This document shows, piece after piece, positions 44,899-62,187 of a stretch of 64,000 nucleotides of DNA. The stretch's first letter is position 1, and every line of letters begins with the position of its first letter. The notes beneath the pieces are model-generated. The model made no database searches. It saw nothing but the letters and a program-made list of their open reading frames with translations, and was not told the origin of the DNA. A program made the position numbers and the translations under genes. Source of the stretch: a virus; IMG/VR virus record IMGVR_UViG_3300035696_000020, positions 39,892-103,891 of that record; one strand, written 5' to 3'.

Positions 44899-44986
44899 TC
44901 GGGGATAAGCGTCAAAGTTCGGGCCGAGCAAGCATTGGCGTGCTATACTCGGCCCTGACCGATCCCGAGTGTTGGAGGCACCCGAA

Positions 44987-45655: not shown

Positions 45656-45818
45656 CACAGAGAATCGAGCCCGTAATGCGCTTTCGCGTGGGGCTCAAAA
45701 TGCTTCTCCCGAACAACTAGCGACGATCAAAGCTAAAGTCCGTCGTCGCTACCCATCAATTCATGTGGAAGGCGAACCCTCTAAGTCCAGAGGCGATCGT
45801 CCGTCACGCAGAAAATGA
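45573..45818 (+). CDS. Small basic phage protein
   Basis: RNKLPSSTFALP..RKYP....RARNALSR. Confidence 0.7.
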   Translation: MAKLKAAQRNKLPSSTFALPEQRKYPLDTENRARNALSRGAQNASPEQLATIKAKVRRRYPSIHVEGEPSKSRGDRPSRRK

Positions 45819-45829
45819 GGTGACATAGA

Positions 45830-46711
45830 ATGGGTACGCATGTCACCTTTACCAAGCAACTCGCCACCGCACATTCCGCAGGCATTGCGGCCTCACAGTC
45901 TGTGACCGGCGGCAATGCGTTCGTCCTGAACGGCAGCAACTACACCAACTACCTTTCCACGACCTCTAGTGCCGCTGCCGCCGTAGGCGCGGTGGTTATC
46001 CCAATGACGGCAACAACTGGAGTTGTTGTTGGGCAGACCATTACAGACACCACGACCTCTGGCGCGCTTGTTGCGGGTACGACCGTCCAAGCTGTTAGCG
46101 CAACCTCAGTAACTATCTGGCCTCCAGTTGCGGGGTCTGTGGGCATTGGCAGTGGCGATACCATTGTCTTCCCTGGCTTGGCGACGATCGACACCGCTAC
46201 GGCGGCAAATAGTGCAATTGGCCGGCGTGTTGTCATTGCATACTCAGGCTCAGATACGACGTTCACCATTGTTGGCACGAACACCAACGGTGCCACGATT
46301 AGCGAGACTATCACTGGTGTAAGTGGTGCAGTCCAGTCCAACATGGATTTTGTGACGGTATCGAGCATTACCCCGGTCGGTAGCATCACCGGAGCCACCG
46401 CTGGGACTAACGGTGTCGGTTCGTCTCAATGGTGGACATTCAACTGGCGTGGTTACTCGCCAATGAATTTGGGCATGGCGGTGGAACTTGTGTCTGGCGC
46501 TGTCAACTTCACGGTACAGCACACCTACGATGATCCGAACAATCTAAGGGCTAGCGCAACCTATCCGCTACCATTCAATGATCCAATCATCACTGGCGCA
46601 AGCAATAATATTGACGCTATTTCCACGGGACCAATTACCGCGTCTCGTGTGCTCATAAATTCAGGAACCGGCGAAATTAGAGTGCGCTTCCTGCAAGCTG
46701 GGGCTGGCTAA
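45830..46711 (+). CDS. Virion structural protein
   Basis: Thr/Gly-rich beta protein; NFTVQHTYDDP; C-terminal LQAG. Confidence 0.7.
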   Translation: MGTHVTFTKQLATAHSAGIAASQSVTGGNAFVLNGSNYTNYLSTTSSAAAAVGAVVIPMTATTGVVVGQTITDTTTSGALVAGTTVQAVSATSVTIWPPVAGSVGIGSGDTIVFPGLATIDTATAANSAIGRRVVIAYSGSDTTFTIVGTNTNGATISETITGVSGAVQSNMDFVTVSSITPVGSITGATAGTNGVGSSQWWTFNWRGYSPMNLGMAVELVSGAVNFTVQHTYDDPNNLRASATYPLPFNDPIITGASNNIDAISTGPITASRVLINSGTGEIRVRFLQAGAG

Positions 46712-47982
46712 TGCTTAAATTTTGGATTGCCATAGCTGCATTCTTAAGTGCGGCATCATTTTCCTATGGGCAGGAAGCAATTCCGGTCATTCCATTGCCG
46801 TTTGCGCCGAATGGAGCGTTTGCGACGCTCACGGCTACGGGTTCATCAGCATCGGTTGCATTGCCGGCAGGTTCATCGGTGATTTTTTATAATACTGGTA
46901 CAACTACGGTTAGTTGCACGTTGGGGGTTGGGTCTGCAACAGCTACGACTAATGAGAACCAAATTCCGTCAGGTGGCAGTCTAGGGTTTACCGTTGGCGC
47001 AAATACCTTTGGAGCCTGTATTGACCAAACTGGTTCCGCAAGTAACGTTGTTGTCCTGGCTGGCGGGGCGGGTGGTGGTGGGGGTGGTTCAGGTGGCGGT
47101 GGTGGGTCTGGTGGAAGTGGCCTTGCAGTAACCGATGAGGCTTCATGGACTGCTGGTACATCTCAATTCACCCCGACAGGCGGTGTTTTTAACGATAGTG
47201 CCCAGGCGCTTACCAGCGGGCAGCAAGGTACGGTTCGTCTTACGAACGATAGACAGATGCATGTTCTTGACTCTGCGGTACTCGCAGCGGTGGAGTCGGC
47301 TGTTCCATTATATAATGTGACGGCATGGAATACAATCACTCCGTACACAACTGGTACGACAAATGCTGGTACGGGTAACTTATACGGCAATCTGTATGTC
47401 GATCTTGGCAAGAACAACGGTAGTGCAGGAACTGCCTCCACTAATGTACTGACTGTTCAGGGCATTGCATCGATGACTGCCCTTACGGTGGCTGGTGCCG
47501 TTGCTCAGGGTGCTGCATATTCCGCGCAGACATTTGTTCCCGTAATGGGTCTCGCTTCAACAAATGCTCCAACAGCAACTACGGGGGATTTGTGGGCTCT
47601 TAGCATTTCGCCAGCGAGTGGTGGCGTCCGCATCGATCTAAAGGACACGGCAGCAAATACGAACAACTTAAACGTCATCAATGGTGCCAATTTCTATCAA
47701 ACTCAGGCAGCCTCAACGGGGATAACCGCTTTGACTGGCGGCGGTGGTGGTGCGACGGGTGACTATCTCTCTCATTGCACCGTGATCCCGACATCAACCA
47801 CGACCGGGGTGTTTACGATTACCGACAATGCAACTGCCATTTATTCCTTCCCTGGCGGCACATCGGCCCTTTCAAATTTGGTTCCGTGGACAATTCCGGT
47901 CGGGGCTAAGAGCGTTAGCGGGGCGTGGAAGATCACGACAGGCGCAGGTCTCTCGGTCGTCTGTGTAGGCAAGTTCACATGA
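46711..47982 (+). CDS. Gly/Thr-rich fibre-like protein with signal peptide
   Basis: MLKFWIAIAAFLSAASFSYG/Q; C-terminal S.SGAWKITTGAG.SV...GKFT. Confidence 0.7.
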   Translation: MLKFWIAIAAFLSAASFSYGQEAIPVIPLPFAPNGAFATLTATGSSASVALPAGSSVIFYNTGTTTVSCTLGVGSATATTNENQIPSGGSLGFTVGANTFGACIDQTGSASNVVVLAGGAGGGGGGSGGGGGSGGSGLAVTDEASWTAGTSQFTPTGGVFNDSAQALTSGQQGTVRLTNDRQMHVLDSAVLAAVESAVPLYNVTAWNTITPYTTGTTNAGTGNLYGNLYVDLGKNNGSAGTASTNVLTVQGIASMTALTVAGAVAQGAAYSAQTFVPVMGLASTNAPTATTGDLWALSISPASGGVRIDLKDTAANTNNLNVINGANFYQTQAASTGITALTGGGGGATGDYLSHCTVIPTSTTTGVFTITDNATAIYSFPGGTSALSNLVPWTIPVGAKSVSGAWKITTGAGLSVVCVGKFT

Positions 47983-48217
47983 TCCGATACATTATCATCT
48001 TTGTAATTGCGTTCATGCTCGGCTCTGCCGGGGCGCGGTATGTCGCCGCTCCATTAAAGGAACGCGAGGCAGCAGGATCGAATGCCTGCGGCTACATTAT
48101 GGCAATGTGGTTGACGCCTAGTTGGAGGGGACAACTCAACGAATCTGCCCAGCACGATCTAAGGGAAGTTTTCAGGATTTGTCGGCCATTTAATGCCGCT
48201 CCCGAGGAAGCCTATAA

Positions 48218-49210
48218 ATGATTGCGCGCAGCATCGCTGCTGTTTTATTGGCGCTCGGCCTTGCGGCGCTTGCCCACGCGCAGCAGATAGGCGGGTTTCC
48301 TCCCGGTGTGTTTCTTGATCGCGGGGCACTTGATCCGGTAGTCGCGTCCTATTCGGGGCCAGGCGATGTCGTCAGCGGCGCTTATATGTGGTGGGGCCTG
48401 CGCTGCTATACAGCGACCTATTCCGGGAATGTCGTTGACATCACGGACTCTGCCACAGGAAATACGACCGGCACTCGTCTTCAGTGTTCCACTGGCGGCG
48501 TCATTTCTGCGGTCGTAAGCGCAAGCGCCTGTACTTTTGTCACCGGAAATGCCTGTTCGCCATTATTGACGACGTGCGCCCTGGCCTGCAATGTCGAGAA
48601 GCTTTACGATCAAAGTGGCAATACGAACTGCAACAGCGCAGCGTGTGATATATATAGGCCGGTTAACGCAAACCGGCCGACCCTTACTTTGAATTGCGTT
48701 AATACTACGTTGTCTTGTATAAGTTTTGTCGGAACTGCTCTAACTCTCACATCAGTAAGTCAAGTCATTCCAACCGCAGCACAGCCTTTAACTTATTCAA
48801 TTATGTCGGTTAGAACGGGTTCGTTTACCACGGAGCAATATATTGCTTCGGATAGCGGCATCAATAATATCATTGAATATAAAGCGGCAAATACCGTCCA
48901 AATGTATGCCGGATCGGCTTTCAAGGCCGCGACGGCATCAGATAGTTCTTTTCATGCCCTGCAAGCCATTTTGAGTGGTACATCAAGTGTTTTTGATGTG
49001 GATGGTACTGACACGCCGGAAAACACACCAGGAACATCAGGCATAACTAGCGGTGGTCATATATTACTTGGTAATAGCGGCGCGGCCAGTTACCAACTGA
49101 CCGAAGCTGGTGTTTGGAACTCAGCGTTTACGACAGGTGCGGGGTCGCAAGCCGCCAAGATGTGCCATAATCAACGACTTTATTGGCTTGCGGATAGTTC
49201 GACATGCTAA
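48218..49210 (+). CDS. Lectin/ConA-like (arabinofuranosidase-B-like) protein with signal peptide
   Basis: AHA/Q signal; WGLR; VEKLYDQSGN; RPTL. Confidence 0.65.
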   Translation: MIARSIAAVLLALGLAALAHAQQIGGFPPGVFLDRGALDPVVASYSGPGDVVSGAYMWWGLRCYTATYSGNVVDITDSATGNTTGTRLQCSTGGVISAVVSASACTFVTGNACSPLLTTCALACNVEKLYDQSGNTNCNSAACDIYRPVNANRPTLTLNCVNTTLSCISFVGTALTLTSVSQVIPTAAQPLTYSIMSVRTGSFTTEQYIASDSGINNIIEYKAANTVQMYAGSAFKAATASDSSFHALQAILSGTSSVFDVDGTDTPENTPGTSGITSGGHILLGNSGAASYQLTEAGVWNSAFTTGAGSQAAKMCHNQRLYWLADSSTC

Positions 49211-49365
49211 AACGCATTGTCGTAGCCATTGTGGTTGTCACTGGCCTCTCAATCTCAGCGTCAGCATGGGTGCACGGCATCTTAGGCGGTGGCGCGAATT
49301 GCCTACTCGACGGCAGTGGCGGGCTCATTCTTGATGGCAGCGGTGGATGTATAGTCGCGCAATGA
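49204..49365 (+). CDS. Small signal-peptide protein (53 aa; not in the ORF track)
   Basis: MLKRIVVAIVVVTGLSISASA/W; LLDGSGG-LILDGSGG; ATGA overlap with the next gene. Confidence 0.6.
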   Translation: MLKRIVVAIVVVTGLSISASAWVHGILGGGANCLLDGSGGLILDGSGGCIVAQ

Positions 49366-52166
49366 AGCGGATCGTTCATGCGTTCATTGGCGCGGCGCTG
49401 TTCGCCGTGCTGGTGCTGGCGCTTGACTTGCACAGCGTCAGTGTGCGGTGGGCGCTCGCGAACACGAACTGGTCGTCGTTCACCTACTGCTTGACGGGCG
49501 GCAGTCTTTGCCGGGGCGACTACAATCGCTTCACCGACTATGGCATCAACGTCCTTGAGTTCAGCGGCATCGATCCTAGTGGCAGTGCGGACTCAACCGC
49601 TGCAATCCAAGCAGCAATTGACTGCTCATTCGGTACTGGCATGGGTTGCTCCAGCTTTACCAGCGGTAAGGTCTATATCCCAGCCGGCGTCTACAAGACG
49701 ACGCAACCGATCTTCGATGACCCACCCGGAAACCTGCGCGGCAAGGTCAGTTACGTCACCAGTGCAAATTCGACCGTTGCCGCGACGACTGCCCTGGTAC
49801 TCGGCGGCAGCGATACAACGAATGGCCTTTATGCCGGGATGCAGATTTCTGGTACTGACATCCAAGCTGGCACCTTCATCGCGAGCATCACGGACAGCAA
49901 GAATATTGTAATGAGCCAAGCCGGAAGCGGCGCGGCATCCAATGTCGTCATCACATTCAACGGCGCATGGAGCAACAGCGTCGGTTACGCGCAGAACTAC
50001 ATCGTCAGCTACAACGGCATTCCGTGGGTTTCGCTCGATGCAGGGACCAACACCGGCAACACGCCATCAGTGTCATCGACGCATTGGGCCTCGACAACGA
50101 TCACTCCGACCAACGGTAGCGTCACGCCGTCCCTGACGGGAGTTGCTGGACTTCCGAGCAATGCCTACGGGGCGTCGTTACACCCGCAATTCAACAATGC
50201 CCCGATCCTGTGGACGAGCACAGGCAACGGTCACACTGTCTCGAACCTTGACATCTATGCCTCCGCTGCCCTGACGGGTAGCGCGGCGCAACGATACAAC
50301 TGCGGGCTTCCGCCTGCTGGGATCAGCGGAGCGGTTGCTGGTGCCAATGGTGGTGCGGTCGTCGGTGGTGTCGGCATCGCGATCCCGAGCGGCACCAACG
50401 GTGCATCTGGGACGACCATCGAGAACGTCAGAATAACTGATGTCTTCGCGAGCATCATGGTCGGTGCGGACGGCATCTCAGCGACGGGGTCGGAGAACTA
50501 TTTTCGCAATGTATGGAACAACAATGCCTGTATTGGCATCTGGTTCTCGACCAATGAAGTGTTCACAAACTCGGTCGTGGACTCGCACATCTGTGGAACG
50601 ATTGCCTACTACGCAGTCGTTGGCGGCGATGTACGGATAAGCCACGGCGACACGGGCGCCTGCGGATCGAACGGCAAGACAAACAGCTTTACGGTCGGAA
50701 GCACCGGATCGTTCAGCATCAGCGGCAACAACGTTACGTTCAACACGACAATCACGCTCAATGGCGACGGAAACGACTCCTACCTGACGGTGTGCGCAAC
50801 GGCGCCGAGCAACATCGGAATGCCACTTGGCTCCCTGTTTTGCAATTACAATACCTGGACGATGATTTCGAGTTACTATGGCGTCGTCCCATTGATCTTA
50901 AAAGCGTATAATTCCAGCACTCAGGTCGCGACGTTCCAGACACTTCCGATGTGGGGACAGCAGAACTTTGCCACGCTGAGCGCAACGGACTTGCAAGCCG
51001 ATCTAACCGCTGTGACGACGATCTACACTGCCGAACAGGTGACGCTGTTCTATGGCGGGAACATCTCGGCGGATGGGCTACACATCGAGGTCCAGGTCCC
51101 GCCCACGTTGATCGCCGATACCTATCAGGCAGTCGGTTCGGCGACGAATACCGTGCGGCTCCAGAACATCATGCTAAACTATGGACCGGACGAAACTTGT
51201 TCTCCCTATCCATGCTCCGCTGCCAATCTATCGACGTTCCTGACGGCGCAGTCATTCCCGACCTTTTACGTCCAAACCACAAACCTCACCGGCCGCAATA
51301 TCAGTTCGGCACAGGGTACTAACAACATCATCATTGATGTGCTGAACACCAAACGCTTCGACTTCCAGCAAGTCGGCCTAAAGCCCAATATGCGTGTCTC
51401 CACCAATGGCGGCGGCCCATTCACGCAATATTACTATAGCTGGTGCGGACCTGCCTACGGATGTGGAACGTGGGATGTGAGCCCGTTCGTACCGATACAA
51501 AATTCGGACTCCAAGTCGATGCGGACGGTTGGTTGGACTTCCGGTCAAGCGTGGGGTGTGCGGCCGGCGCTTAACTCGACGCCCCGCATCACGCCAACGA
51601 CGCTCACGACTACTATGGGGTGTACTGGCGGCCCGCCGTTGACGTGCACGCTTCCCGCGATCAGCCCCAGCGCTAATATTTCTTATCCGCTATTGAGCGG
51701 CGACGTTTTTTACAGCCTCGGTCCCGACTGGAACAGCGGCTCGCTCACCCACGCTTTCTTCCATAGCTCGCACAAGTTCTACAGTTACGGCCAGCCGCTC
51801 ACGACCAGCAACGTGACCGGGCTCAACTGGACGTACAAGGGGCAGAGCTGGGTCGTGTACTTGTGCGCGAACGCGCCGGGTGCGGTGCCGGGGCAGTGCA
51901 CCGCAAACGAGACGGCGCTGCTCGGCATGATGTTTCCTGGTCTCGGCGTCCAGTTCAACTGCGGCACTGATTGCAGCAACACGGATGAGACCTACATGGT
52001 GACGGGCGTTTACCCAGGCCTTGGCTATATCACGGTTCTCAATGCCAATCAGGATGGCGGGCCGAACGGTCTCGTGGGCACCAAGACGACGGTCTACACT
52101 TGCCCGAGCAATTGCCCGGTGACGCAGATCAACCAACAATTATATTCAATCACCGAGTATCCCTGA
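49362..52166 (+). CDS. Tailspike/pectin-lyase-like beta-helix protein with CBM5/12-like insert and signal peptide
   Basis: INVLEF..IDPSGSADSTAAIQAAID...KVYIPAGVYK; AWSNSVGYAQNYIVSYNG..W...NTGNTP....HW. Confidence 0.75.
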   Translation: MKRIVHAFIGAALFAVLVLALDLHSVSVRWALANTNWSSFTYCLTGGSLCRGDYNRFTDYGINVLEFSGIDPSGSADSTAAIQAAIDCSFGTGMGCSSFTSGKVYIPAGVYKTTQPIFDDPPGNLRGKVSYVTSANSTVAATTALVLGGSDTTNGLYAGMQISGTDIQAGTFIASITDSKNIVMSQAGSGAASNVVITFNGAWSNSVGYAQNYIVSYNGIPWVSLDAGTNTGNTPSVSSTHWASTTITPTNGSVTPSLTGVAGLPSNAYGASLHPQFNNAPILWTSTGNGHTVSNLDIYASAALTGSAAQRYNCGLPPAGISGAVAGANGGAVVGGVGIAIPSGTNGASGTTIENVRITDVFASIMVGADGISATGSENYFRNVWNNNACIGIWFSTNEVFTNSVVDSHICGTIAYYAVVGGDVRISHGDTGACGSNGKTNSFTVGSTGSFSISGNNVTFNTTITLNGDGNDSYLTVCATAPSNIGMPLGSLFCNYNTWTMISSYYGVVPLILKAYNSSTQVATFQTLPMWGQQNFATLSATDLQADLTAVTTIYTAEQVTLFYGGNISADGLHIEVQVPPTLIADTYQAVGSATNTVRLQNIMLNYGPDETCSPYPCSAANLSTFLTAQSFPTFYVQTTNLTGRNISSAQGTNNIIIDVLNTKRFDFQQVGLKPNMRVSTNGGGPFTQYYYSWCGPAYGCGTWDVSPFVPIQNSDSKSMRTVGWTSGQAWGVRPALNSTPRITPTTLTTTMGCTGGPPLTCTLPAISPSANISYPLLSGDVFYSLGPDWNSGSLTHAFFHSSHKFYSYGQPLTTSNVTGLNWTYKGQSWVVYLCANAPGAVPGQCTANETALLGMMFPGLGVQFNCGTDCSNTDETYMVTGVYPGLGYITVLNANQDGGPNGLVGTKTTVYTCPSNCPVTQINQQLYSITEYP

Positions 52167-52417
52167 TGCTCTGGTTCATCTCCGCACAACTGGCGTGCTC
52201 GCCAACCTAATGGTCTACGCTAAACAAATCAAAGAACTATCAGACTCGATGTCCCAACTCCTAGATGACATGGGTAGGGAAGGACAGTCTGTAAGCCTAT
52301 ACGCCAAGGCAAAGGCACGTATAGCCTTTGAGCCATTCCGTGATCTGGATGACGACCCTACGGCGTATATGAACCTAGATCACGCAATCAGCATCGTCGC
52401 AGAAACAGAGGGATGAG

Positions 52418-52642
52418 ATGAAAAAGATCGTAGCAGTAGCGTTATTCCCATGGCTTGTAATGACTGCCAATGCCGCAGACAAGATTGTAACGCTCAATGA
52501 CAATGAGCGCGCCGCAATCACCAAAGAACTCTGCGACGCGGCACGATACGCAAACCGCATGCTCGCCGATCAGGTGTGCGCGTACTTCGAAAAGAAGTTT
52601 GCCGACGCGCCGGTAGCCGAGCCAAAGAAGGACGACAAGTAA
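52418..52642 (+). CDS. Small secreted helical protein
   Basis: MKKIVAVALFPWLVMTANA/A. Confidence 0.55.
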   Translation: MKKIVAVALFPWLVMTANAADKIVTLNDNERAAITKELCDAARYANRMLADQVCAYFEKKFADAPVAEPKKDDK

Positions 52643-52995
52643 TGAATGCCTTTGACCAGTTGGTTGAAACCATTTCCAAGACAGAAAACCCGCTATCGTT
52701 GGCTGGGTCATTGCCGGAAGTTAAGGCTGGCATGGCAGCACTTTTGGAACGGTTGCAAGCTCTAGAAAACAAGGCAGGCATCACGCCAGAAACGCCAGAT
52801 TTCCCAACTAACTGATGTGTTGGCTGTCATTCCTCGCAGGGATGGCAACTACAGGGCTGCTACTTGTCGCGGCGTTCGTCGGGGTCGTGCTGTGGATTTT
52901 CTTTCATAGGAAGGTGAAGAGTGGACCTAGGCACTTGCGCACCTAGCAGTCATTACGTACCATTCCCGATTGATTCGGGGAAGGGGGAAGGCGTG

Positions 52996-53856
52996 ATGAA
53001 GGGGTGGGCGTATGAGGTGTCTGACTACTACCGCATGTCACCAAGGCCAAAGCCTTCCTATGAAGCGGTAAGGCGAGCACGGCCACAGGTCGTCAAGAAT
53101 CTGCTTATTGCGTTTAGAATTAACGACAATACGCGACACAAGTGCATTGTCTATGCCGCAATCAACAAAACTAACAACAAGATTTATATTGGCAAGACCG
53201 TCATGGGTCTGGCTAGGCGCAAGATAGGACATTTGGTAGCGTCTAATCAGGATAGGAAAAGTCTCTTTTGTTCCGCTATCAAAAAATATGGCATAGATGG
53301 GTTCCATTGGATCGTTCTACAAAAATGTAGAGATGAGGAACACGCGTATGAAAGAGAAAAATACGCTGTAGCTGCCATATTGCCAGAATACAATATGTCC
53401 GAGGGAGGGATAGGCGGTGCTGCTGGTAAGATTGTTCAGACCACAGAATGGGAGCCATCTCCAGAGGCCATCGATATTGCTCTCAAAGAGCAAAGAGAAC
53501 TAGCCAAGAAAAATAACGTATCAAAGATCGAACCTAAATGGTCTCATTCTCAGGAATCGAAAGAAAGACGTTCTGCCGCTAAAAAGAAATGGTGGGACGA
53601 TAAAAGAAAAAATGAGGAAGAGTTCTCTGCGTTTCTGGCTGATATGCGCATTTCGAGACGAAAGCCAGAGTTTCATAAAAAAGCAAAAAGAGTTATGTGC
53701 ATAACTGATAATAATAAGGTGTTCCCGAGCATAGCATCTGCGGCAACTTTTTACAATATCAGCAAACCTACTGTTGCAAGGTCCTGCAAGAAAAATGGGG
53801 CATACAAGTACCCTAGAAATCATAGATTTGTATATGTAGATTCTATAAAGAAATGA
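52996..53856 (+). CDS. GIY-YIG homing endonuclease with C-terminal NUMOD1-like HTH (start uncertain)
   Basis: IVYAAINKTNNKIYIGKT..L.RR; AIKKYG; E...YN; VFPSIASAATFYNI. Confidence 0.85.
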   Translation: MKGWAYEVSDYYRMSPRPKPSYEAVRRARPQVVKNLLIAFRINDNTRHKCIVYAAINKTNNKIYIGKTVMGLARRKIGHLVASNQDRKSLFCSAIKKYGIDGFHWIVLQKCRDEEHAYEREKYAVAAILPEYNMSEGGIGGAAGKIVQTTEWEPSPEAIDIALKEQRELAKKNNVSKIEPKWSHSQESKERRSAAKKKWWDDKRKNEEEFSAFLADMRISRRKPEFHKKAKRVMCITDNNKVFPSIASAATFYNISKPTVARSCKKNGAYKYPRNHRFVYVDSIKK

Positions 53857-54539
53857 CAGGCACCTCAGGAACCTATTCATTCAATCCACCTATAGGCTCT
53901 TTAGCTCAAAGCGCTTTAGCACGTTGCGGAGTTCATAGAACAGCGATCACTTCGCAGCATATGGACGACGCTTATCTTGAATCTAACTATATGCAAAAAG
54001 CGTGGTCCAATGATGGACTGACGCTATGGACGGTTGACTTACAGACTATTTCCTTAATTCAAGGGACTGCTACCTATTCCGTCCCGGCAGAAACGGTGAT
54101 GATTCTTGACCTTTACATTACTGTTTCAAACAATAACAATCGCTTGATATATCCATTTTCGCGAACTGACTACGCGAGTTTAGCTAACCCACAAACTCAA
54201 GGCGTACCGACAAGCTTCTGGTTCGATAGGTTGGAAACATCTCCCACGGTTACTTTCTGGCCTGTACCAGATGGTGGAGGACCGTACACGGCTAGCTATT
54301 ACCGCTACAGGGAAATTCAAGATGCAAACATACCGCAAGGCGGCAATGTCGAAGTGCCAGAACTCTGGCTAGACGTTTTTGTTGCCGGTTTAGCCCATAG
54401 ATTATCAAGAATATATGCACCTACTTTAGAAGCACAACGTAAGGCTGATTACGATATTGCTTATGAGTTGGCAGCAAAGCAGAATACGGAAAACGTGCCT
54501 TTGTTTTTTAACCCAGCTTTGCAAGGCTATTTTAGATAA
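53853..54539 (+). CDS. Head-tail adaptor/connector-like protein
   Basis: TSGTYSFN, WSNDGL.LWT, SRTDY..L.N..TQG.PT.FWFDR, FWPVPD, AGLA.RL. Confidence 0.75.
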   Translation: MTGTSGTYSFNPPIGSLAQSALARCGVHRTAITSQHMDDAYLESNYMQKAWSNDGLTLWTVDLQTISLIQGTATYSVPAETVMILDLYITVSNNNNRLIYPFSRTDYASLANPQTQGVPTSFWFDRLETSPTVTFWPVPDGGGPYTASYYRYREIQDANIPQGGNVEVPELWLDVFVAGLAHRLSRIYAPTLEAQRKADYDIAYELAAKQNTENVPLFFNPALQGYFR

Positions 54540-54959
54540 ATGGGTCGCCCGCAGAGTAGATATACTAGAGTTAATCCGACCAATCCCGAAGGCGCCGGTC
54601 AGTGCGACAGGTGCGGGAGATGGTTTAACCTTCGTTCTTTGCAATGGCAATACGAATGGAGTGGAACGCACCTTTATAATAAAAGAATACTAGTATGCAC
54701 CGAAGGCGGTTGTCTAGATGTTCCGCAGGAACAATTGAGGACAATTATACTTCCTCCAGACCCTCCACCACTAGTTAATGCTCGTGTTCCTGATTTCTAT
54801 TATGAAGAGCAGACTGTTCGTATAGTACAGTTTGCCGATCCAACATTAGCCCAGCCACCTTGGGGAGACGGCCCACAATTAACGCGGTGCCTGCAATTTG
54901 CTGGGCAAAATTCGAACAGTCCCATTACGCGCGAAATACAATATTTGACTAGCATTTGA
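54540..54959 (+). CDS. Zn-binding conserved virion-region protein
   Basis: CDRCG...LVC...CLD.PQEQL...DP.P..NAR. Confidence 0.7.
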   Translation: MGRPQSRYTRVNPTNPEGAGQCDRCGRWFNLRSLQWQYEWSGTHLYNKRILVCTEGGCLDVPQEQLRTIILPPDPPPLVNARVPDFYYEEQTVRIVQFADPTLAQPPWGDGPQLTRCLQFAGQNSNSPITREIQYLTSI

Positions 54960-54965
54960 GGTTTG

Positions 54966-55451
54966 ATGGCCCTAGCAGTACCGGCTGATGGCCGTATAAC
55001 ATCCCAAGCAATTCTAGTACCACCGCAGACTGGTGGCGAGGTGATGGAAATCGTCTCGCCTGGGAACGCGGCATTAGGGAACACGTATCAAATTACGCTT
55101 GCGAATCTCGCGGCGTTCTTTGCCGGGTATCCGGTGATGAATACCGAGACGATCACTGCGGGCGCGACGCTTGCTAGTCCGTTCCAAGTTGAGACTACGG
55201 ACACGTGGATTCTGTTTAACAAGACGATTGGCTCGGCGAGCTATGCGACGTTACCGTTGGCTGCGAGCATGGTTTATCCTGGCCCGGTCTTTTTCAAGGA
55301 TTTGAAGGGCGACGCTGCGACGAATAACATTACGATTCAGTTCAGCGCAGGGCAATTGTGTGATGGGCTGACCACTATCGTTATTTCCGATGCCTACGGA
55401 TGGGTACGCATTGCGCCAGTTAGCGGGGGTAATGCATGGTATCAGTGCTAA
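54966..55451 (+). CDS. Virion structural protein
   Basis: TLPLA, KD..GDAATNNITI, I...YG. Confidence 0.65.
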   Translation: MALAVPADGRITSQAILVPPQTGGEVMEIVSPGNAALGNTYQITLANLAAFFAGYPVMNTETITAGATLASPFQVETTDTWILFNKTIGSASYATLPLAASMVYPGPVFFKDLKGDAATNNITIQFSAGQLCDGLTTIVISDAYGWVRIAPVSGGNAWYQC

Positions 55452-57556
55452 AACGTGTGAAATATTTCGTCATTGCGGTTGTTTTAACTCTTGCCTCGGC
55501 GAGCGCGGCATTCGCAGATTGTACTGGACAGTTTGCGGTTGGGCAAATCTGCGGCAACGATACTGCGTCTCAGGCACCTCCGACTGGAGTAGGCATTAGC
55601 GCGTTTCTTGATTCGCAGTATAGTACCCAGCCAGGAACGATAATCTACCGTGGATCATCAGGGTGGACGAGTTTACCGGGAAATAATAGCGGAACCAAGG
55701 TTCTTTCTGAAAACAATACTGGTGTGCCGTCTTGGGCATCGGCGGCAGGCACGGGTACGGTTACCTCGGTGGGATTGGTGCTACCGAATATTTTCACGGT
55801 AACCGTATCTCCAATTACCACATCTGGCTCGCTTACGGCGGTCCTTGCATCTCAGAATCAGAACTTAGTCTTTGCCTCGCCAGATGGATCAAGCGGTACA
55901 CCTACATTTAGGTCACTTCTTCTTGATGACTTCCCAGCGATAACAGCTAATACGGTTTTAGGGAACGGTACTGGATCAAGTGCTATTCCTACCGCGCTTA
56001 CGATGCCGTCATGCAGTAGTGCGACCTCGGCGCTGACATGGACGACTAGCACTGGTTTTGGTTGCAACAGCATTACCGGAACTGGTACGGTCACTTCGAT
56101 CGTGATTGGGACAGGACTAGCCAGTACGCAAAGCCCATTGACCACGACTGGCACGCTTTCGCTAGCCACGATCTCTGCGGATAATCTTCTCGGGAATGCT
56201 TCTGGCAGCACTGCCGCGCCGGGTGCGGTTCCACTTACAAGTTGCTCTTTGACACAACAGGCATTGACGTACAATACAACTACGCATGCCTTTGGTTGTA
56301 ACACTATCACAGGTTCCGGTACGGTCGTGGCTAGCACCGCAGGGCAGATGGCATGGTACTCGACTTCTACAAACGTCGTCGTCGGAAGCCTGAATGCAAA
56401 TCTAAGCAATGGTGCACTTACACTTGGGCAATCTACATCAGTCCAAGGTGAATTGATTCTTGAAGGCGGGACTAGTGGCGCACTGACAATCACCACACAA
56501 GCCACAGCTAGTACCCCGACGTGGACCGCAGGAACCTCAAGCGGCACTCCAGCCGTTACTGCAAGCTCACCACTAGCAATTACGACTGCGACTGGCAATA
56601 TCACTATCACTGGTGCAGCGGGTAAGGTTCTCGCGGGTTCAGGTCCAGCATTCACCGCGACTCCGACTATCGGTGTTGCGTCTAGTACTACAGGTTCTTT
56701 ATCTTTTGTAGGCACAACAAGCGGAACCGTCGTACTTTCGGTTCAGGACATCGCAGGCTCGTGGACGTTTAAATTTCCGACTAGCGGCGGCTCAAACGGC
56801 GAATTTCTTCAAACGGATGGTTCTGGGAATACTACTTGGGCATCACCTTCTGGCAGTGGTACGGTTAATTCCGGCGCTTCTGGACAAATAACCTATTATG
56901 GTTCAAGTGGAACTGCAGTTTCTGGAAATTCTAATGCGAACATTAGTGCTGGTGCGCTTACGCTTGGACAGGCAAATTCTACCCAAGGCGAAGTGATCCT
57001 AGAGGGTGGGACTAGCGGCGCGTTGACGATTACTACCCAAGCCACAGCGGGAACGCCGACATGGACGGCGGGCACCTCAAGCGGTACTCCCGTCGTTACC
57101 GCATCTTCACCGCTTTCGATCACGACGGCGACTGGCAACATTGTAATCACTGGCGCGGCAGGACAGGTCCTCGCGGGGTCAAGCCCTGCATTTACAGCAA
57201 CTCCTACGCTAGGCGCTTCTGGAACGCTCGGCACAATCGCGTTCGGGAATGCTTCCAGCGGCACCGTCACACTTGGCACCGTCACAGGCCCACTTGGCAG
57301 TGTGACAGCATCTTTGCCGGCAAACACTGGCACGATCGCGGAAACAAATTACGCTCAAACTTGGAGTGCAGTTCAGACCTTCACGAACTCCGACATCTGC
57401 CTTCTCGGTTCCTCAACCGGCTGCACAACATTCACGAGCGCCAATGTCAGCGCTACGAATTACACGCTCACCATTCCAGCCGCGACAGGCACTCTGGCTC
57501 TGACGACTAATGCCGGCATCGCTGCCTTTCAACAAGCCTCACTGGGGGGCATCTGA
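55445..57556 (+). CDS. Ser/Thr/Gly-rich tail-fibre-like protein with signal peptide and internal repeats
   Basis: AFA/D signal; GTGTVTSV, SGTPTFRSL, FPTSGGSNGEFLQTDGSGNTTW fibre motifs. Confidence 0.75.
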   Translation: MLKRVKYFVIAVVLTLASASAAFADCTGQFAVGQICGNDTASQAPPTGVGISAFLDSQYSTQPGTIIYRGSSGWTSLPGNNSGTKVLSENNTGVPSWASAAGTGTVTSVGLVLPNIFTVTVSPITTSGSLTAVLASQNQNLVFASPDGSSGTPTFRSLLLDDFPAITANTVLGNGTGSSAIPTALTMPSCSSATSALTWTTSTGFGCNSITGTGTVTSIVIGTGLASTQSPLTTTGTLSLATISADNLLGNASGSTAAPGAVPLTSCSLTQQALTYNTTTHAFGCNTITGSGTVVASTAGQMAWYSTSTNVVVGSLNANLSNGALTLGQSTSVQGELILEGGTSGALTITTQATASTPTWTAGTSSGTPAVTASSPLAITTATGNITITGAAGKVLAGSGPAFTATPTIGVASSTTGSLSFVGTTSGTVVLSVQDIAGSWTFKFPTSGGSNGEFLQTDGSGNTTWASPSGSGTVNSGASGQITYYGSSGTAVSGNSNANISAGALTLGQANSTQGEVILEGGTSGALTITTQATAGTPTWTAGTSSGTPVVTASSPLSITTATGNIVITGAAGQVLAGSSPAFTATPTLGASGTLGTIAFGNASSGTVTLGTVTGPLGSVTASLPANTGTIAETNYAQTWSAVQTFTNSDICLLGSSTGCTTFTSANVSATNYTLTIPAATGTLALTTNAGIAAFQQASLGGI
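56315..57214 (+). repeat. ~120-codon internal duplication offset by 540 nt
   Basis: GALTLGQ..S.QGE.ILEGGTSGALTITTQATA.TPTWTAGTSSGTP at 56411 and 56951. Confidence 0.85.
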
Positions 57557-58947
57557 TGCACGTCGAAGAACTGTTCGAATCGGCGATCGTCACTGCTCAG
57601 GATGGCAAATATGTTGCTGCGCTTATAGCGATGCAAGAGGTATTATTGCGTGATCCAAAGCATGCGCGTGCATGGAACGGGTACGCGATGCTCGCGGGAA
57701 AGTTAGGAAATCACTTCGTTGCGTTAACTGGCTTTGACCAAGCGATTATCTGCGATCCAAGCAATCCTGACTATGTGAGCAACCGTGGCTTTGCACTCAT
57801 GGACCTCGACAAGATTGAAATGGCACTTGCGGCGTTTGAGGATACGCTAAAGATCAAGCCAGATCATACTGCTGCTTTGGTCAACCGTGGGAATGCGTTG
57901 CGTCGCCTACGTCGTGAACAGGAGGCAGTAGAATCATATCGACGGGCGATTGAAATCAATCCAGAATTGGCACAGGCGCATTTTGGCTTGGCAACTGCAT
58001 TGCTTGCTCTTGGGCACCTCAAGGAAGGGTTTTCTGAATTTGAATGGCGTTGGAAAAACGGCAGCGGTGGGATTGAGCGGGAGTCTTCACACAAGAGGTG
58101 GCGTGGCGAGCCATTGACAAAGCGTGACGGTTTATTGATCTATGGTGAGCAAGGAATCGGCGACTGTATTCAATTCGCAAGGTATGCACCGCTAGTCAAG
58201 AAACGATGGCCGGAAGCCAAGGTTTACCTTGAAGTCCGCCCTATGTTCGCAAGGCTTGCGAAGACAATGACGGGAATTGATGGGATTTGCCAAGTAGGAG
58301 ACACACTACCTGATGGGATCACGCATATCGTGCCTATCCTTAGCCTCCCGCACATACTCGGAACTGACTTGGATTCCATACCATCTGCGCCATCGTATTT
58401 TCATGCCAACAGCGATGCCGTCAAGGTGTGGGAAAAAACATTCAGTAATCTTCCTGGCTTGAAAGTTGGGTTGTGTTGGGCTGGCAGGGCGCGACCAAAT
58501 CAACCTGTGGCGGATGCGATCGATCAAAGACGATCAATGAAGCTTGCTGATTTTGCGCCTTTGGCCGGCATGGCATCATTCGTCAGTCTCATGGAAGTTA
58601 CTAATCCGGCCGCGCAACAAGTCCACAATCCTCCAGATGGGTTAAAGATTGTTGATTGTGCAGATTGCATGGATGATCTCTATGCAACTGCGGCACTTAT
58701 TACCTCACTTGATCTTGTAATTACGGTGGATACCGCGATTGCACATTTGGCCGCTTCGTTAGGTAAAGAAACATGGATGCTGGCGAGATTTGATACTTGC
58801 TGGCGTTGGCTAACGGGACGATCTGACAGTCCATGGTATCCCACCATGCGTATTTTCACCCAGCCACAACCGGGTGATTGGGCATCCGTGGTGGAGAGCG
58901 TAAGGGATGGTCTACAGGGTCGGAAGCATTTATTTTTGGCTGCATAA
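57556..58947 (+). CDS. TPR + glycosyltransferase (GT9-like GT-B) protein
   Basis: N-terminal TPRs; EWRW; EQGIGD.IQFARY; KVGLCWAG; LDLVITVDTAIAHLAASLGKETW; WRW...RSDSPWYP. Confidence 0.9.
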   Translation: MHVEELFESAIVTAQDGKYVAALIAMQEVLLRDPKHARAWNGYAMLAGKLGNHFVALTGFDQAIICDPSNPDYVSNRGFALMDLDKIEMALAAFEDTLKIKPDHTAALVNRGNALRRLRREQEAVESYRRAIEINPELAQAHFGLATALLALGHLKEGFSEFEWRWKNGSGGIERESSHKRWRGEPLTKRDGLLIYGEQGIGDCIQFARYAPLVKKRWPEAKVYLEVRPMFARLAKTMTGIDGICQVGDTLPDGITHIVPILSLPHILGTDLDSIPSAPSYFHANSDAVKVWEKTFSNLPGLKVGLCWAGRARPNQPVADAIDQRRSMKLADFAPLAGMASFVSLMEVTNPAAQQVHNPPDGLKIVDCADCMDDLYATAALITSLDLVITVDTAIAHLAASLGKETWMLARFDTCWRWLTGRSDSPWYPTMRIFTQPQPGDWASVVESVRDGLQGRKHLFLAA

Positions 58948-58961
58948 AAGGAAAAATTGCC

Positions 58962-59450
58962 ATGTTGAAAGTTCTTCGAAAGCATCGTTGGTTCGCGACA
59001 GTTGCTCAGATTGCACTGTTGTTGGGACCATCATCAGAAGTTTTTGCGGCAGTTACTGCTACTCCCGTATATGTGCAAACGCCCAACTTCGGACAAGCGA
59101 TTAGCAACGGCGCAACGGCGGTCGGTCTCTATACAGGAGGGGCTAACGGATCGAAATGCGTTGGCGCGTGGGCGAGTAATACTCAAGCTGCTACAGCATA
59201 CAATCTTAGCCTCGTCATAGTTTCCACGAATACTGCGACCTATGAGACCATATCTATTCCAGGCAACGCTGGTCTGTCAACCACACAGGCAGCCATCAAT
59301 CTGATGTCTAGCGCAAATTGGCCTGGATTACCGCGAGATTCTGACGGCAATCCATTCTTTTACCTCAAGAGCGCAGCGGTAATAAATATCATCAGCGCAG
59401 CGGCTGCTTCCGCATTTCTACAAGCAGGTATTGTATGCGGAGATTTTTAA
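58962..59450 (+). CDS. Virion-type beta protein with signal-like leader
   Basis: VFA/A; AVTATPVYVQTP, YTGGANGSK, DSDGNPFFYL, GDF end. Confidence 0.65.
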   Translation: MLKVLRKHRWFATVAQIALLLGPSSEVFAAVTATPVYVQTPNFGQAISNGATAVGLYTGGANGSKCVGAWASNTQAATAYNLSLVIVSTNTATYETISIPGNAGLSTTQAAINLMSSANWPGLPRDSDGNPFFYLKSAAVINIISAAAASAFLQAGIVCGDF

Positions 59451-59935
59451 AAGTGCGTTGGGGGGTTCTCGCATTCTTTCTCTTATTCAGCAGTCTAGCA
59501 TCGGCGCAACAATCACCAATGCCAGGTGAACGCTCGGTCGCGGGTGAGGTTGCTTCCCTTCTCAGGCAGGGGCAAATCCTCCGTGGCGGCGCTAAGGTCC
59601 GCTCAGTGTGCGCCACGGGCGCGCTGGATGTCGCCAATACCCAGTGCATTGCTCCTTCCTCGATTACGATCGATTGTAGCCTTGGCCCACTTCAGTTTGT
59701 CGAAAACAATGGCGCCTTTACATTCAATGCGCCGTTAGACGACGGCAATTGCTTCGTTATGTTCTACAATGGAGCTAGTGCTGGAACTCCAACACCGGGT
59801 GGGTTTACAGTAGGCTCTAATACGGGATCAGCCTTTACCACGACCAGCACCAACCTCTTCACCGTCTCGATCTGGCGCATCACTATTCCCGGTGTGGGTT
59901 CGACATCTGGCTACACGGTTTTCGCGCACCAATGA
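59435..59935 (+). CDS. Fibre-tip-like protein with signal peptide
   Basis: ASA/Q signal; NNGAFTFNAP, NGASAG. Confidence 0.6.
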   Translation: MRRFLKVRWGVLAFFLLFSSLASAQQSPMPGERSVAGEVASLLRQGQILRGGAKVRSVCATGALDVANTQCIAPSSITIDCSLGPLQFVENNGAFTFNAPLDDGNCFVMFYNGASAGTPTPGGFTVGSNTGSAFTTTSTNLFTVSIWRITIPGVGSTSGYTVFAHQ

Positions 59936-60846
59936 TTAAACGCTTCATAGTAGGTCTGACCGTTGTTTTTTTCGCTGGGATTGCGACCGCGCAGATAGGT
60001 CCTATCCCTGGTTATGGTCCTTCATTATTTTTTACAGCAGGAAAATCGCCATGTACTGGAGGCTCACTTACTACTGTTGGTGGTAAACGAGTTTACACTT
60101 TCACATCAACTGGTTCTTTACAATGCCCAAGCACAAGGACTGTCAATCTTCTCGTCATTGGCGGCGGCGGCGGCGGCGGTAAGCTTGTTGGCGGCGGCGG
60201 TGGCGGAGGAGGATATCTTTCTGTTACTGGTTATAATATATCTAGTACGAGCAGTCTGACTATAACTGTTGGTACAGGTGGATTAGGATCAACGTCAAGT
60301 AGTTCAAAAGGTGGAAGCGGAAATTCTTCTTCGTTCGATACAACTGGAGTTATCTTAACTGAAACGGCCACAGGCGGAGGCGGTGGCGGAAGCGACAGTT
60401 CGGGTGTTGGAACTGGCGCAAACGGAGCGAATGGCGGCGGTGGTAGCGGCGGCCAGTACGGTGGTAATGGCGGGACTGGCTCCCCCGGTAATAACGGCGG
60501 CAACGGCAATACCGTATCGGGGGCAGTTGGCGGCGGCGGCGGCGGTGGCAATGGTGCGGCGGGGAGTAACGGTACGACTCTTGTGGGCGGCAATGGCGGT
60601 ACTGGTTCAGCAAGTAGCATAAGTGGATCGTCTGTTACTTATGGATGCGGCGGCGGCGGCGGCGCAGACGGTAATACCGCTGGAACCGGAGGATGTTCGT
60701 CTGCTGGTAACGGAACTAACAGCGACAGTACTGCCGGCGCTGGAACGGCCAATACGGGATCGGGCGGCGGTGGCGGAGGACTTTCTTCTAGTGGCGGAAC
60801 TGGCGGTACAGGTGGCAGCGGAATCGTTATTGTTGCAGAACAATAA
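59932..60846 (+). CDS. Glycine-rich-domain fibre protein with signal peptide
   Basis: ATA/Q signal; YTFTSTG, LVIGGGGGGG, ITVGTGG, ANTGSGGGG, GGSGIVIV. Confidence 0.75.
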   Translation: MIKRFIVGLTVVFFAGIATAQIGPIPGYGPSLFFTAGKSPCTGGSLTTVGGKRVYTFTSTGSLQCPSTRTVNLLVIGGGGGGGKLVGGGGGGGGYLSVTGYNISSTSSLTITVGTGGLGSTSSSSKGGSGNSSSFDTTGVILTETATGGGGGGSDSSGVGTGANGANGGGGSGGQYGGNGGTGSPGNNGGNGNTVSGAVGGGGGGGNGAAGSNGTTLVGGNGGTGSASSISGSSVTYGCGGGGGADGNTAGTGGCSSAGNGTNSDSTAGAGTANTGSGGGGGGLSSSGGTGGTGGSGIVIVAEQ

Positions 60847-60864: not shown

Positions 60865-62187
60865 ATGTCTGAAAAATTGCGCTACGTAGTTTTCGACGAT
60901 AATTATCCGGTTCAGGTCAACGCCGCAGTCGTCACTGACTATATGCCGGAACCGTTCGAACTTGACGACCTTTGTGCTTGTCTGACGACACCACAAGCGA
61001 CCGGCAATCCAATTACCATCGATGTGCTTAAGAATGGCGTTTCTCTACTCGCGACTAAGCTTACATTCGACAATACTAAGAACAGTACGCGCGGTGCTTC
61101 AGTGCCCTTCGTGTTTGTGGCTTCTCAACAGCAATTCAATCTAGACGACAAACTCAATATCGCTGTGACGCAGATCGGGGACGGTACAGCCGCAGGTCTT
61201 AAAGTCACGATGATGGGCCGCCAACCAGCGACCGCAGTCGTGCAATCCGGCGGCGGGGGCGGCGGCATTGGCGCTCCTGTTGTTTCAAGCATCAGTCCCA
61301 ATACCGGACCATTGGCTGGCGGCACCAGCGTTACCATTAGCGGCTCCAACTTCACAGGCGCCACCGCCGTCACGTTCGGAAGCCAACCTGCGACTAACGT
61401 CATGGTTGTCAACGCCAACACGATCACGGCGACGACGCCGGCTGGGACCGTAGGCGCGGCCAATGTCTCGGTGACCACGCCAGCAGGCACAGGCGTCGGG
61501 AGCAACCTGTTTTCTTATATTTCCAGCGGTGGTCAATTCGGTGTACCGCGTAAGATTGGCACCGCGTCTCCTGGCAGCAACCAATCCTCGACCAGTTTTA
61601 CCACGATCGCAGCACTTGCGGATGGTGATTTGCTTGTAGTAGCTGCAACTGCCCTTGTTGGCGGTTCATCTGGCAAATTTATCAGCATGAACATCAATGG
61701 CACGGCGCTTACTCCACGTAAGCAGAGTCTATGTTCCAGCGGTGGCGATGCAGGATTTGCTGAAATATGGGAATTGTTTTGTCCATCGGCTTTCCCGATT
61801 GGAGCAACCATTACTGTCAGCGCTAGCGGGACTTCTGTTGGAGGTATTGCCGTTGCCGCTGGTGCGATCACTGGTCCGACTGCTTTCGATGTTGGGAACG
61901 TCGCAAATAGCAATGGTACGGCAACACAGAATGTCCCAGTATCAACTGGCACGCTCTCGACACAGCCAGAGGTTGTTGTTGGAGTCATTGGAAGCAACCT
62001 CGCAGGGTCGTTCTCACATAATAACGATGTTTTCGGCGCCTCGGTTATTGCTGATCTCTCTGGTTCGCCGTATATTTCACTAGAACTCGCGATGTTGGTC
62101 GTCACCGCGACTCAGAGTGTTACTTACAATCCCACGACTAGCGGGAGCGGAGCATACATCGAATCAGCCGTCGCGGCCTATCGGTAG
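60865..62187 (+). CDS. Virion protein with IPT/TIG (Ig-like) domain
   Basis: PVVSSISPNTGPLAGGTSVTISGSNFTGATAVTFG...ITATTP. Confidence 0.8.
   Translation: MSEKLRYVVFDDNYPVQVNAAVVTDYMPEPFELDDLCACLTTPQATGNPITIDVLKNGVSLLATKLTFDNTKNSTRGASVPFVFVASQQQFNLDDKLNIAVTQIGDGTAAGLKVTMMGRQPATAVVQSGGGGGGIGAPVVSSISPNTGPLAGGTSVTISGSNFTGATAVTFGSQPATNVMVVNANTITATTPAGTVGAANVSVTTPAGTGVGSNLFSYISSGGQFGVPRKIGTASPGSNQSSTSFTTIAALADGDLLVVAATALVGGSSGKFISMNINGTALTPRKQSLCSSGGDAGFAEIWELFCPSAFPIGATITVSASGTSVGGIAVAAGAITGPTAFDVGNVANSNGTATQNVPVSTGTLSTQPEVVVGVIGSNLAGSFSHNNDVFGASVIADLSGSPYISLELAMLVVTATQSVTYNPTTSGSGAYIESAVAAYR

Follow-up and report, generated by a model that had tools for sequence, protein, structure and literature searches.

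A leaderless knob protein and a leader-bearing tail fibre encoded as a gene pair in an uncultured peat phage

Tailed-phage assembly is, in the textbook account, wholly cytoplasmic, and the literature, as far as our incomplete coverage of it extends, does not describe tail fibres with leaders for any tailed phage. Here we describe a block of genes (46711-60846) in which ten proteins carry predicted Sec-type export leaders, and a two-gene unit within it that joins one of them, the fibre SP706, to a leaderless tail protein with a compact C-terminal knob (Anchor162, hereafter the knob protein). The window that we analysed is the last 64 kb (64,000 nucleotides, positions 39,892 to 103,891) of the 103,891-bp IMG/VR virus record IMGVR_UViG_3300035696_000020, a short-tailed podovirus of about 104 kb from peat. 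Every gene in the window lies on the + strand, and positions are those of the window unless given as genome positions. The pairing of a knob gene with a fibre gene that carries an N-terminal Cys loop is, as a kind of evidence, new here.

The closest described counterparts are branched receptor-binding complexes built on gp10-like XD hubs, namely CBA120 TSP4/TSP2, G7C gp66/gp63.1 and T4 gp9/gp10 (PMC8825819). In these complexes a small N-terminal anchor holds the hub on the tail, a fibre or spike from an adjacent gene is thought to hang on the hub, and the attachment modules stay as the distal modules are swapped. The 162-aa knob protein (54963-55451) is built along similar lines, as a leaderless mini-fibre or adaptor. 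Its residues 1-57 hold a motif found at the N-terminus of many ordinary tail fibres, and its residues 58-162 form the knob in an AlphaFold2 (AF2) model (pLDDT >90). The knob has the fold of the domain XD1, aligning with residues 78-175 of CBA120 TSP4-N at Z 12.1 and a root-mean-square deviation (rmsd) of 2.5 Å over 97 residues, with T4 gp10 at Z 10.2 and with T4 gp9 at Z 9.3, against about 3 for unrelated rows; the XD1 matches (VIA) as a set span 92-97 residues at an rmsd of 2.4-2.5 Å. Two differences stand out. The known partners are leaderless and assembled in the cytoplasm, whereas the fibre considered here has a cleavable-looking Sec leader and an N-terminal disulfide loop. Known docking also runs via XD2 or XD3 and not XD1, whereas the knob is a terminal domain, and its binding to the fibre is putative.

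Other systems share single elements with this locus. In design, the fibre resembles the MAT fibres of Bdellovibrio bacteriovorus, which have a signal peptide, a beta-rich, conserved domain about 130 aa long past it, a long trimeric shaft and exchangeable tips (PMC10769870). MAT fibres are, however, cellular and stand on the predator surface, whereas the fibre described here is phage-encoded, lies between two adaptor genes, is paired with a tail-anchor protein and lacks an S74 domain. In T5 (Llp) and phi80 (Cor), the gene for an exported, leader-bearing phage protein is likewise paired with a virion receptor-binding gene. Blockers of this type are small, at roughly 60-80 aa, and are lipoproteins or membrane proteins, whereas the partner in pairs of the present type is a 400-1300-aa fibre (706 aa in SP706) without a lipobox; adjacency alone is shared with Llp, and it is the fibre's N-terminus, not its ligand-binding end, that is conserved with the neighbour. 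In Porphyromonas phages, Sec-type leaders on several proteins of unknown function have been read as use of host secretion, but that account names capsid, spanin and unknown genes, mentions no tail fibres and describes no pairing with a leaderless adaptor (PMC10367356).

SP706 (55436-57556) is a 706-aa protein with a leader, an N-terminal Cys loop, a repetitive Ser/Thr-rich shaft and eight Cys; its Ser+Thr content of 32% is the highest of the ten. With a GGGGGT run resembling a Shine-Dalgarno sequence 5 nt before it, the ATG at 55436 makes a better start than the GTG at 55445 given in an earlier note on this DNA; the leader is kept with either. Predicted cleavage at AFA/DC (the slash marks the site) leaves a 10-residue Cys loop at the new N-terminus, within the motif C-x-G-Q-F-x2-G-x2-C-(G/A)-N, where SP706 has G. 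The closest relatives of the fibre (56-68% identity across the alignment) all have leaders of unrelated sequence followed by the Cys-loop motif, and the alignment holds six invariant Cys, that is, three pairs. SP706 itself has no recognisable N-terminal tail-attachment domain; the anchor motif sits on the separate 162-aa protein. The shaft repeats have homologues in 380 relatives, some with PF07484 (collar), PF13884 (S74) or PF12708 (pectate lyase), and ordinary leaderless N-terminal anchors were found on the shaft homologues of 63 of 80 viral loci. In other phages (P0202, P0275) an anchor of the knob-protein type is fused directly to a similar shaft, without knob or leader. A shaft homologue with a leader-like N-terminus also lies in a non-phage-looking neighbourhood of an Acidobacteriaceae metagenome-assembled genome (MAG; L086:3077-4303), which hints that fibre modules of this type may also be used as cellular adhesins.

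The knob and fibre genes overlap by 16 nt in the window phage, and we searched IMG/VR for this arrangement from both sides. The forward search, which used only the Cys loop, written as a degenerate DNA pattern, returned 22 matches, six of them chance matches in unrelated frames and 16 true leader-plus-loop fibres. At all 16 true sites a knob-family open reading frame (ORF) ends 63-89 nt upstream of the loop, abutting or overlapping the fibre start; at one site a 169-aa ORF is inserted between the knob gene and the fibre. Every one of the 15 fibre leaders that we read (14 from the 16 sites, which include two identical pairs, and the window's own) ends in A-x-A, 1-3 residues before the first Cys. 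The reverse search took the knob as its profile-guided target and found 29 loci; in 25 of the 28 evaluable ones, the next gene after the knob was a leader-bearing Cys-loop fibre. The other three (L116, L120 and L139) have no fibre, and what comes after the knob gene there is an endolysin-like gene or adaptor 2. Among the loci found in both searches the relation is thus asymmetric, the fibre always occurring with the knob and the knob sometimes without the fibre. Among the 23 loci from the knob search with the leader-bearing fibre as next ORF, 22 show a gene overlap of 10-58 nt and one (L133) has a 4-nt gap. For part of its length the leader is read in a second frame across the knob gene's 3' end, and so is under selection. 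A programmed -1 frameshift fusing knob and fibre was considered as well and dropped, since stop codons lie in the fibre frame just upstream in several orthologous loci.

Within the pair, the knob and the Cys loop are conserved and the distal fibre is swapped. Across pairs the knob is 36-64% identical over about 100 aa, and in many pairs only the first 13-55 mature residues of the fibre are kept, the rest being 400-1,300 unrelated residues. In four phages (L093, L103, L108 and L111) the hidden Markov model (HMM) covers the knob part only; in the two read at the N-terminus, L093 (collagen-like) and L111, a different type of N-terminal part is present and the knob-plus-fibre unit is retained. This is the pattern expected if one protein were an adaptor, with its anchor to the particle and its knob to the fibre, and the other a receptor-binding fibre with a constant attachment end and a variable business end. 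The best explanation appears to be that the pair is a two-gene receptor-binding unit, the core of the exported set, common to about 29 uncultured phage contigs.

The fibre is one of a set of leader-bearing proteins. Leaders were called by rule (n-h-c features) on crude gene predictions for all 103,891 bp of the genome. The calls flagged 10 of the 17 genes in 46711-60846, whereas outside the block the figure was about 7 of 161 (p = 4e-8, Fisher, one-sided). The earlier note had listed nine ORFs with basic-hydrophobic-AxA-type leaders; all nine were found on the + strand with the starts given there, and we add a tenth (47979-48221). All ten leaders have 1-4 basic residues, an uncharged hydrophobic core of 14-19 residues and a small-x-small site, mostly A-x-A (AHA/QQ in SP330, ANA/AD in SP74, ASA/QQ in SP166, ATA/QI in SP304, AGA/RY in SP80, SYG/QE in SP423, AFA/DC in the fibre, and SASA/WV). 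Eight are classical, SP934 and SP162 less so. In SP934 an 18-residue hydrophobic core is followed by the nearest A-x-A only 11 residues further on, and this leader may be an uncleaved signal anchor; the leader of SP162 (58962) has a Gln within its core. The lipobox L-[AS]-[GA]-C is absent from all ten, the fibre's first Cys coming after A-F-A-D. A twin arginine occurs in SP166 alone, which starts M-R-R-F-L-K and so lacks the x position of the Tat motif S/T-R-R-x-F-L-K.

The mature parts are consistent with a life outside the cytoplasm. Cys counts are even in all ten proteins (in gene order 4, 2, 12, 2, 22, 2, 8, 2, 4 and 4), whereas those of the leaderless neighbours (0, 0, 1, 6, 1, 5, 2 and 7) are not uniformly even, and Ser+Thr content in the larger ones is 18-32%, so that the paired Cys and Ser/Thr richness described earlier hold up. 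The mature domains, too, are of the kinds first described: fibre, beta-helix, lectin/glycosidase-like and Gly-rich. Whether homologues lack the leaders had been proposed as a check, and in the three families searched (fibre, SP330 and SP934) the leader is kept in function and not in sequence. Leaders pass a strict rule in 70 of the 120 best fibre relatives; they are present in at least 96 of 120 relatives of SP330, where several rule failures are leader-like by eye, and in most of 11 SP934 relatives. Given these features, the leaders behave like genuine Sec/signal peptidase I signals, and the ten proteins are very probably exported and disulfide-folded outside the cytoplasm, a well-supported reading, and their leaders would be cleaved on the way. 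The statement that nearly all tail-fibre and spike genes here carry signal peptides was nevertheless too broad. The knob protein, both adaptors and a 318-aa collar-domain fibre are leaderless by inspection, and a 684-aa ORF at the nozzle position, placed by synteny with relatives, is leaderless by the rule-based scan. More small leader-bearing proteins are encoded outside the block (31954-32262 and 32866-33213; genome 13186-13779 and 21216-21623), and the phage's predicted exports therefore exceed the ten discussed here.

Our preferred reading, to which we assign a probability of roughly 0.42, is that at lysis the fibre, by then exported and disulfide-bonded, attaches to an adaptor on the virion, and that the other leader-bearing proteins are partners or free enzymes. 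The late operon would give rise to a Sec-exported set that folds oxidatively in a Gram-negative periplasm, and the leaderless knob protein, from the first gene of the pair, would be built onto the tail in the cytoplasm. The fibre gene, second of the pair, is probably translationally coupled to the knob gene that it overlaps. Signal peptidase would cut the fibre leader at A-x-A, exposing the 10-residue disulfide loop as the new N-terminus, and the fibre would then trimerise and form its three disulfides in the periplasm, where SP162, SP166 and SP304, which are tip-like or chaperone-like, are its likely partners. It would meet finished particles only when the inner membrane is breached by holin and lysis; its Cys-loop end would then dock onto the knob. 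SP330, SP934, SP423 and the three small proteins would be variable accessory genes in two hot spots, more probably free envelope or exopolysaccharide enzymes and lectins, or further fibre partners. A fuller version is more tentative: two-compartment assembly in which the principal variable fibre for host recognition, synthesised as a Sec precursor, is plugged by its Cys loop onto the XD1-like adaptor of the virion at lysis, separately exported tip-like or chaperone-like proteins join there, and O-glycosylation possibly comes beforehand.

The obligate, asymmetric pairing and the joint conservation of knob and Cys loop point towards fibre docking on the virion at or after lysis. The proposal, made before our analysis, that the exported appendages are added at lysis thereby gains indirect support for the fibre only, through its obligate pairing with a leaderless, tail-anchored protein. 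P22 tailspikes join heads in vitro, and docking after release is thus biochemically possible. If docking occurs, it would constitute a two-compartment route of which none has been described for any tailed phage, and the host's Sec, signal peptidase and Dsb, along with the mode of lysis, would help determine virion make-up, host range and infectivity. It would also explain the recruitment by phages of disulfide-rich modules like those of bacterial adhesins, and phage engineering would gain a simple way of adding fibres in trans.

Several points weigh against docking. In TSP4, gp10 and gp9, XD1 is not the shown partner-binding surface; it has been described as a spacer, and in StcE and CpaA glycans are bound by this fold (PMC8825819). 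As a spacer or glycan-binding fold, the knob could itself be the receptor-binding tip. A receptor-binding protein can, moreover, be gene-paired with an exported receptor blocker, as T5 pb5 is with Llp. Among the mature parts of the ten proteins there is no N-terminal (docking) domain that all have in common. Leaderless fibres are already present on the particle, which may not need exported ones, and docking in a diluting lysate would be inefficient.

The main rival, somewhat less probable, is an account in which the exported proteins never enter the virion and act in the periplasm or lysate, masking, binding or degrading host surface polysaccharide or receptor. They might stop superinfection, keep progeny off debris and slime, or release particles from an exopolysaccharide matrix, and the pairing would mean that the knob is the receptor-binding tip of the virion and the fibre its cognate blocker, like T5 Llp. 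The account suits the enzyme-like members best, and the folds of SP330 and SP934 speak for it. SP330 (48218-49210) is a 12-Cys ConA-like beta-sandwich (model pLDDT 86.7) whose best fold match is the GH54 alpha-L-arabinofuranosidase catalytic domain 6sxs (E 1.7e-7, TMq 0.53); the top five Foldseek matches are all GH54 (E 1.7e-7 to 5.7e-7, TMq 0.50-0.54, about 323 columns), and some homologues carry PF13385 or PF09206. The fold is typical of secreted glycosidases, and SP330 looks, from its model, like a GH54/ConA-type enzyme or lectin. The earlier suggestion of exported appendages may thus not extend to all ten proteins. SP934 (49362-52166, 22 Cys), which starts with a signal peptide or signal anchor, is a pectate-lyase-like, tailspike-like beta-helix; PF12708 matches its residues 67-193 (E 9.6e-7, 29.2 bits against a gathering cut-off of 27) and occurs in 7 of its 11 relatives.

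The remaining accessory proteins are less telling. SP423 (46711-47982, 4 Cys) has a disulfide domain of about 90 aa after its leader, then a Gly-rich linker and a C-terminal part; its Atlas model reaches a pLDDT of 0.61, and its closest clusters are viral and without a family. SP80 (47979-48221), the small protein missed at first reading, SP53 (49204-49365), a 53-aa Gly-rich peptide, and SP74 (52418-52642), a small helical protein, have a leader and two Cys each. The genes of the block are tightly packed and frequently overlap. In the window phage the leader-bearing genes other than the fibre form two variable insertions, at 46711-52642 before adaptor 1 and at 57556-60846 after the fibre, and the content of such hot spots differs among relatives, which speaks for proteins that stay outside the particle. 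In two relatives the second slot, that after the fibre, holds lysis genes, putative in the second case: an endolysin-like ORF behind the knob/fibre region of L116 (1289-1951), and, after the pair in L114 (3931-6091), small membrane proteins and a lipobox protein. The lipobox protein of L114 could be a spanin, and a 219-aa ORF there is guessed to be a hydrolase.

Glycan binding by the XD1 fold (PMC8825819), the leaderless fibres already on the particle and the three phages with a knob and no fibre also favour proteins that never join the virion. Features of the fibre speak against it. A blocker would be expected to co-vary with the receptor-binding part, but here the knob and the first 13-55 residues of the fibre are conserved and the distal part is swapped; with its constant N-terminus and variable C-terminus, the fibre is built like a receptor-binding protein. 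In all the clade members examined it stands between the two adaptor genes, within the core structural operon; receptors on the outer face would be out of reach of a periplasmic protein before lysis. Should the account nonetheless be correct, the phage would encode an unusually large exported toolkit for remodelling or masking the envelope of peat bacteria.

The three genes at the end of the second insertion encode what would be, in our preferred reading, the likely periplasmic partners of the fibre. SP162 (58962-59450, leader, 2 Cys, C-terminus VCGDF) has homologues directly behind leader-bearing fibres in two other contigs (L084, 38% identity, E 3e-33; and L091). SP166 (59435-59935) consists of a leader and a stand-alone tip domain that forms the fibre C-terminus in relatives (residues 731-840 in P0001, 39% identity, E 1e-19; also L112). 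SP304 (59932-60846) carries a Gly_rich_2 domain (PF21722, E 8.7e-18, 65.6 bits against a cut-off of 24.3) and matches positions 563-847 of the 1183 in phrog_2295 (E 2.3e-38); elsewhere, Gly-rich domains of this type are the distal part of fibres of about 1,000 residues, as at the C-terminus of P0009.

Display of the fibres, in the manner of MAT fibres, on the surface of the infected cell, which would stick to neighbouring hosts or surfaces and burst beside new hosts, seems unlikely. MAT fibres are phage-tail-fibre-like cellular proteins with a signal peptide, a conserved domain and swapped tips (PMC10769870), and the shaft homologue in the Acidobacteriaceae MAG shows a protein of this family with a leader-like N-terminus in apparently non-phage surroundings. 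None of the ten proteins, however, has an outer-membrane translocation module, a beta-barrel or a lipobox; late-operon genes of a lytic-looking phage would leave little time for display; and the obligate pairing with a leaderless protein that bears a tail-anchor motif would go unexplained. We consider it very unlikely that the leaders are inactive in export for the functional pool, whether as retained docking or trimerisation helices, through an unexported cytoplasmic fraction that assembles, or as mis-called starts: SP934 could be a signal anchor and the leader calls are rule-based, but A-x-A occupies -3/-1 in 15 of 15 otherwise unrelated fibre leaders, the positive n-regions, 14-19-residue cores and paired Cys of all ten fit export, the Cys loop directly follows the predicted fibre cleavage site, hundreds of homologues keep a leader, and in SP423 the stretch of about 180 residues past the leader is free of in-frame Met (GTG and TTG starts were not screened for all ten).

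The Ser/Thr-rich fibre is followed directly by a gene with a predicted tetratricopeptide repeat (TPR) and glycosyltransferase (GT) architecture (TPR-GT, 57556-58947), as first noted; its start shares a base with the fibre stop codon. The leaderless product has TPR at residues ~5-160 and a GT-B, GT9-like part at residues ~165-463. The Pfam GT9 match covers residues 375-405 only, at 22.6 bits against a cut-off of 22, and a sequence search of the PDB with this protein gave TPR matches only. It has an Atlas feature score of 0.97 to GT9-annotated clusters and a TM of about 0.9 to bacterial TPR/GT9 proteins. The architecture is very common in Pseudomonadota, one alphaproteobacterial MAG holding at least three full-length homologues (32-39% identity) and further partial matches. 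FlmG, which combines TPR and GT-B, O-glycosylates flagellins in the cytoplasm before export (PMC7591256), and TibC and Aah are GT9-like heptosyltransferases that act on autotransporters (cited in PMC7591256). The likeness to FlmG is one of architecture only, an N-terminal TPR and a C-terminal GT-B, in a gene that abuts an exported substrate candidate with 32% Ser+Thr. The phage gene differs from FlmG and TibC in that its GT9 Pfam match spans just about 30 residues and in that it is missing from the cassettes of relatives, where we did not find it in the stretches examined. By analogy, it is a reasonable guess that TPR-GT may O-glycosylate the fibre in the cytoplasm before export.

The cassette around the pair is shared with about ten related contigs. 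Their gene order is a p293-like gene, adaptor 1, a zinc-ribbon gene, the knob, the leader-bearing fibre, 0-5 mostly leader-bearing genes, adaptor 2 and a fibre of about 320 aa; where the loci extend so far, a nozzle-position ORF of about 680-750 aa comes after that fibre. In the window the series begins with the leaderless, 293-aa p293 (45830-46711), whose stop overlaps the start of SP423. Relatives keep its C-terminal ~100 aa at a position just upstream of adaptor 1 (63% identity to an ORF in L107, with shorter homologues in L096 and L102). Adaptor 1 (53853-54539; PF24175, E 7.7e-12, 46.5 bits) and its paralogue adaptor 2 (62896-63621; PF24175, E 1.2e-20, 75.3 bits), both leaderless SU10-type head-to-tail adaptors scored against a cut-off of 27, bracket the fibre cassette. 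The two are conserved as a pair in the relatives, where adaptor 2 closes the cassette. The leaderless Zn139 (54540-54959), small, Cys-rich and zinc-ribbon-like, is always encoded between adaptor 1 and the knob gene. In other phages Zn139 and the knob protein form a single fused protein (P0143, 361 aa; P0140, 280 aa), so that Zn139 probably belongs to the tail and binds the knob protein. Beyond the block lie a leaderless 440-aa IPT/TIG-domain protein (60865-62187) and the leaderless 318-aa collar-domain tail fibre, whose gene (63636-64000 in the window) continues over the circular junction into the genome start.

That junction is marked by a 127-bp direct repeat at the genome ends (window 63874-64000, genome 1-127). 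It is probably an assembler overlap and not a pair of physical ends, since assemblers commonly use a k-mer length of 127 and an ORF continues without a break through the repeat; we therefore treated the genome as circular. Large internal-protein-like ORFs are located at the genome start. Elsewhere in the window are the large terminase, with an intein-like insert (21021-24155), the portal (28124-30769) and the likely major capsid protein (41354-42280). DNA nearly identical to this genome is present in three peat metagenome studies, one of them possibly the source sample, and no RNA sequencing runs are among the matches listed for the near-identical sequence. Against cultured phages, megablast with the block 46711-60846 and tblastn with SP166 and SP162 gave no match, and no related locus was found in IMG/VR with SP934 alone or SP330 alone. 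The portal has relatives in podoviruses of Pelagibacter, Roseobacter and Caulobacter and in uncultured phages. Together with MAG bins and the TPR-GT paralogues of 32-39% identity in an alphaproteobacterial MAG, these relatives are suggestive of a Gram-negative, probably alphaproteobacterial host.

Some further genes deserve mention. Upstream of the window (genome 37277-38056) lies a gene for an outer-membrane-beta-barrel-like protein of 259 aa with a classical leader ending PAWA/AD; the protein had no hit in Pfam, and comparison with 301 genomes of one class gave no useful match. Homing-endonuclease-like genes (HNH/EndoVII and GIY-YIG-like) are found at 42428-43519, 44969-45655 and 52921-53856 and at genome 6111-6872, and in relatives GIY-YIG-like genes are inserted at other points of the same structural cassette. 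Two small, very basic proteins are encoded between the capsid gene and the p293 gene (44605-44898 and 45573-45818), and counterparts of both occur at the same place in three relatives (L096, L102 and L107).

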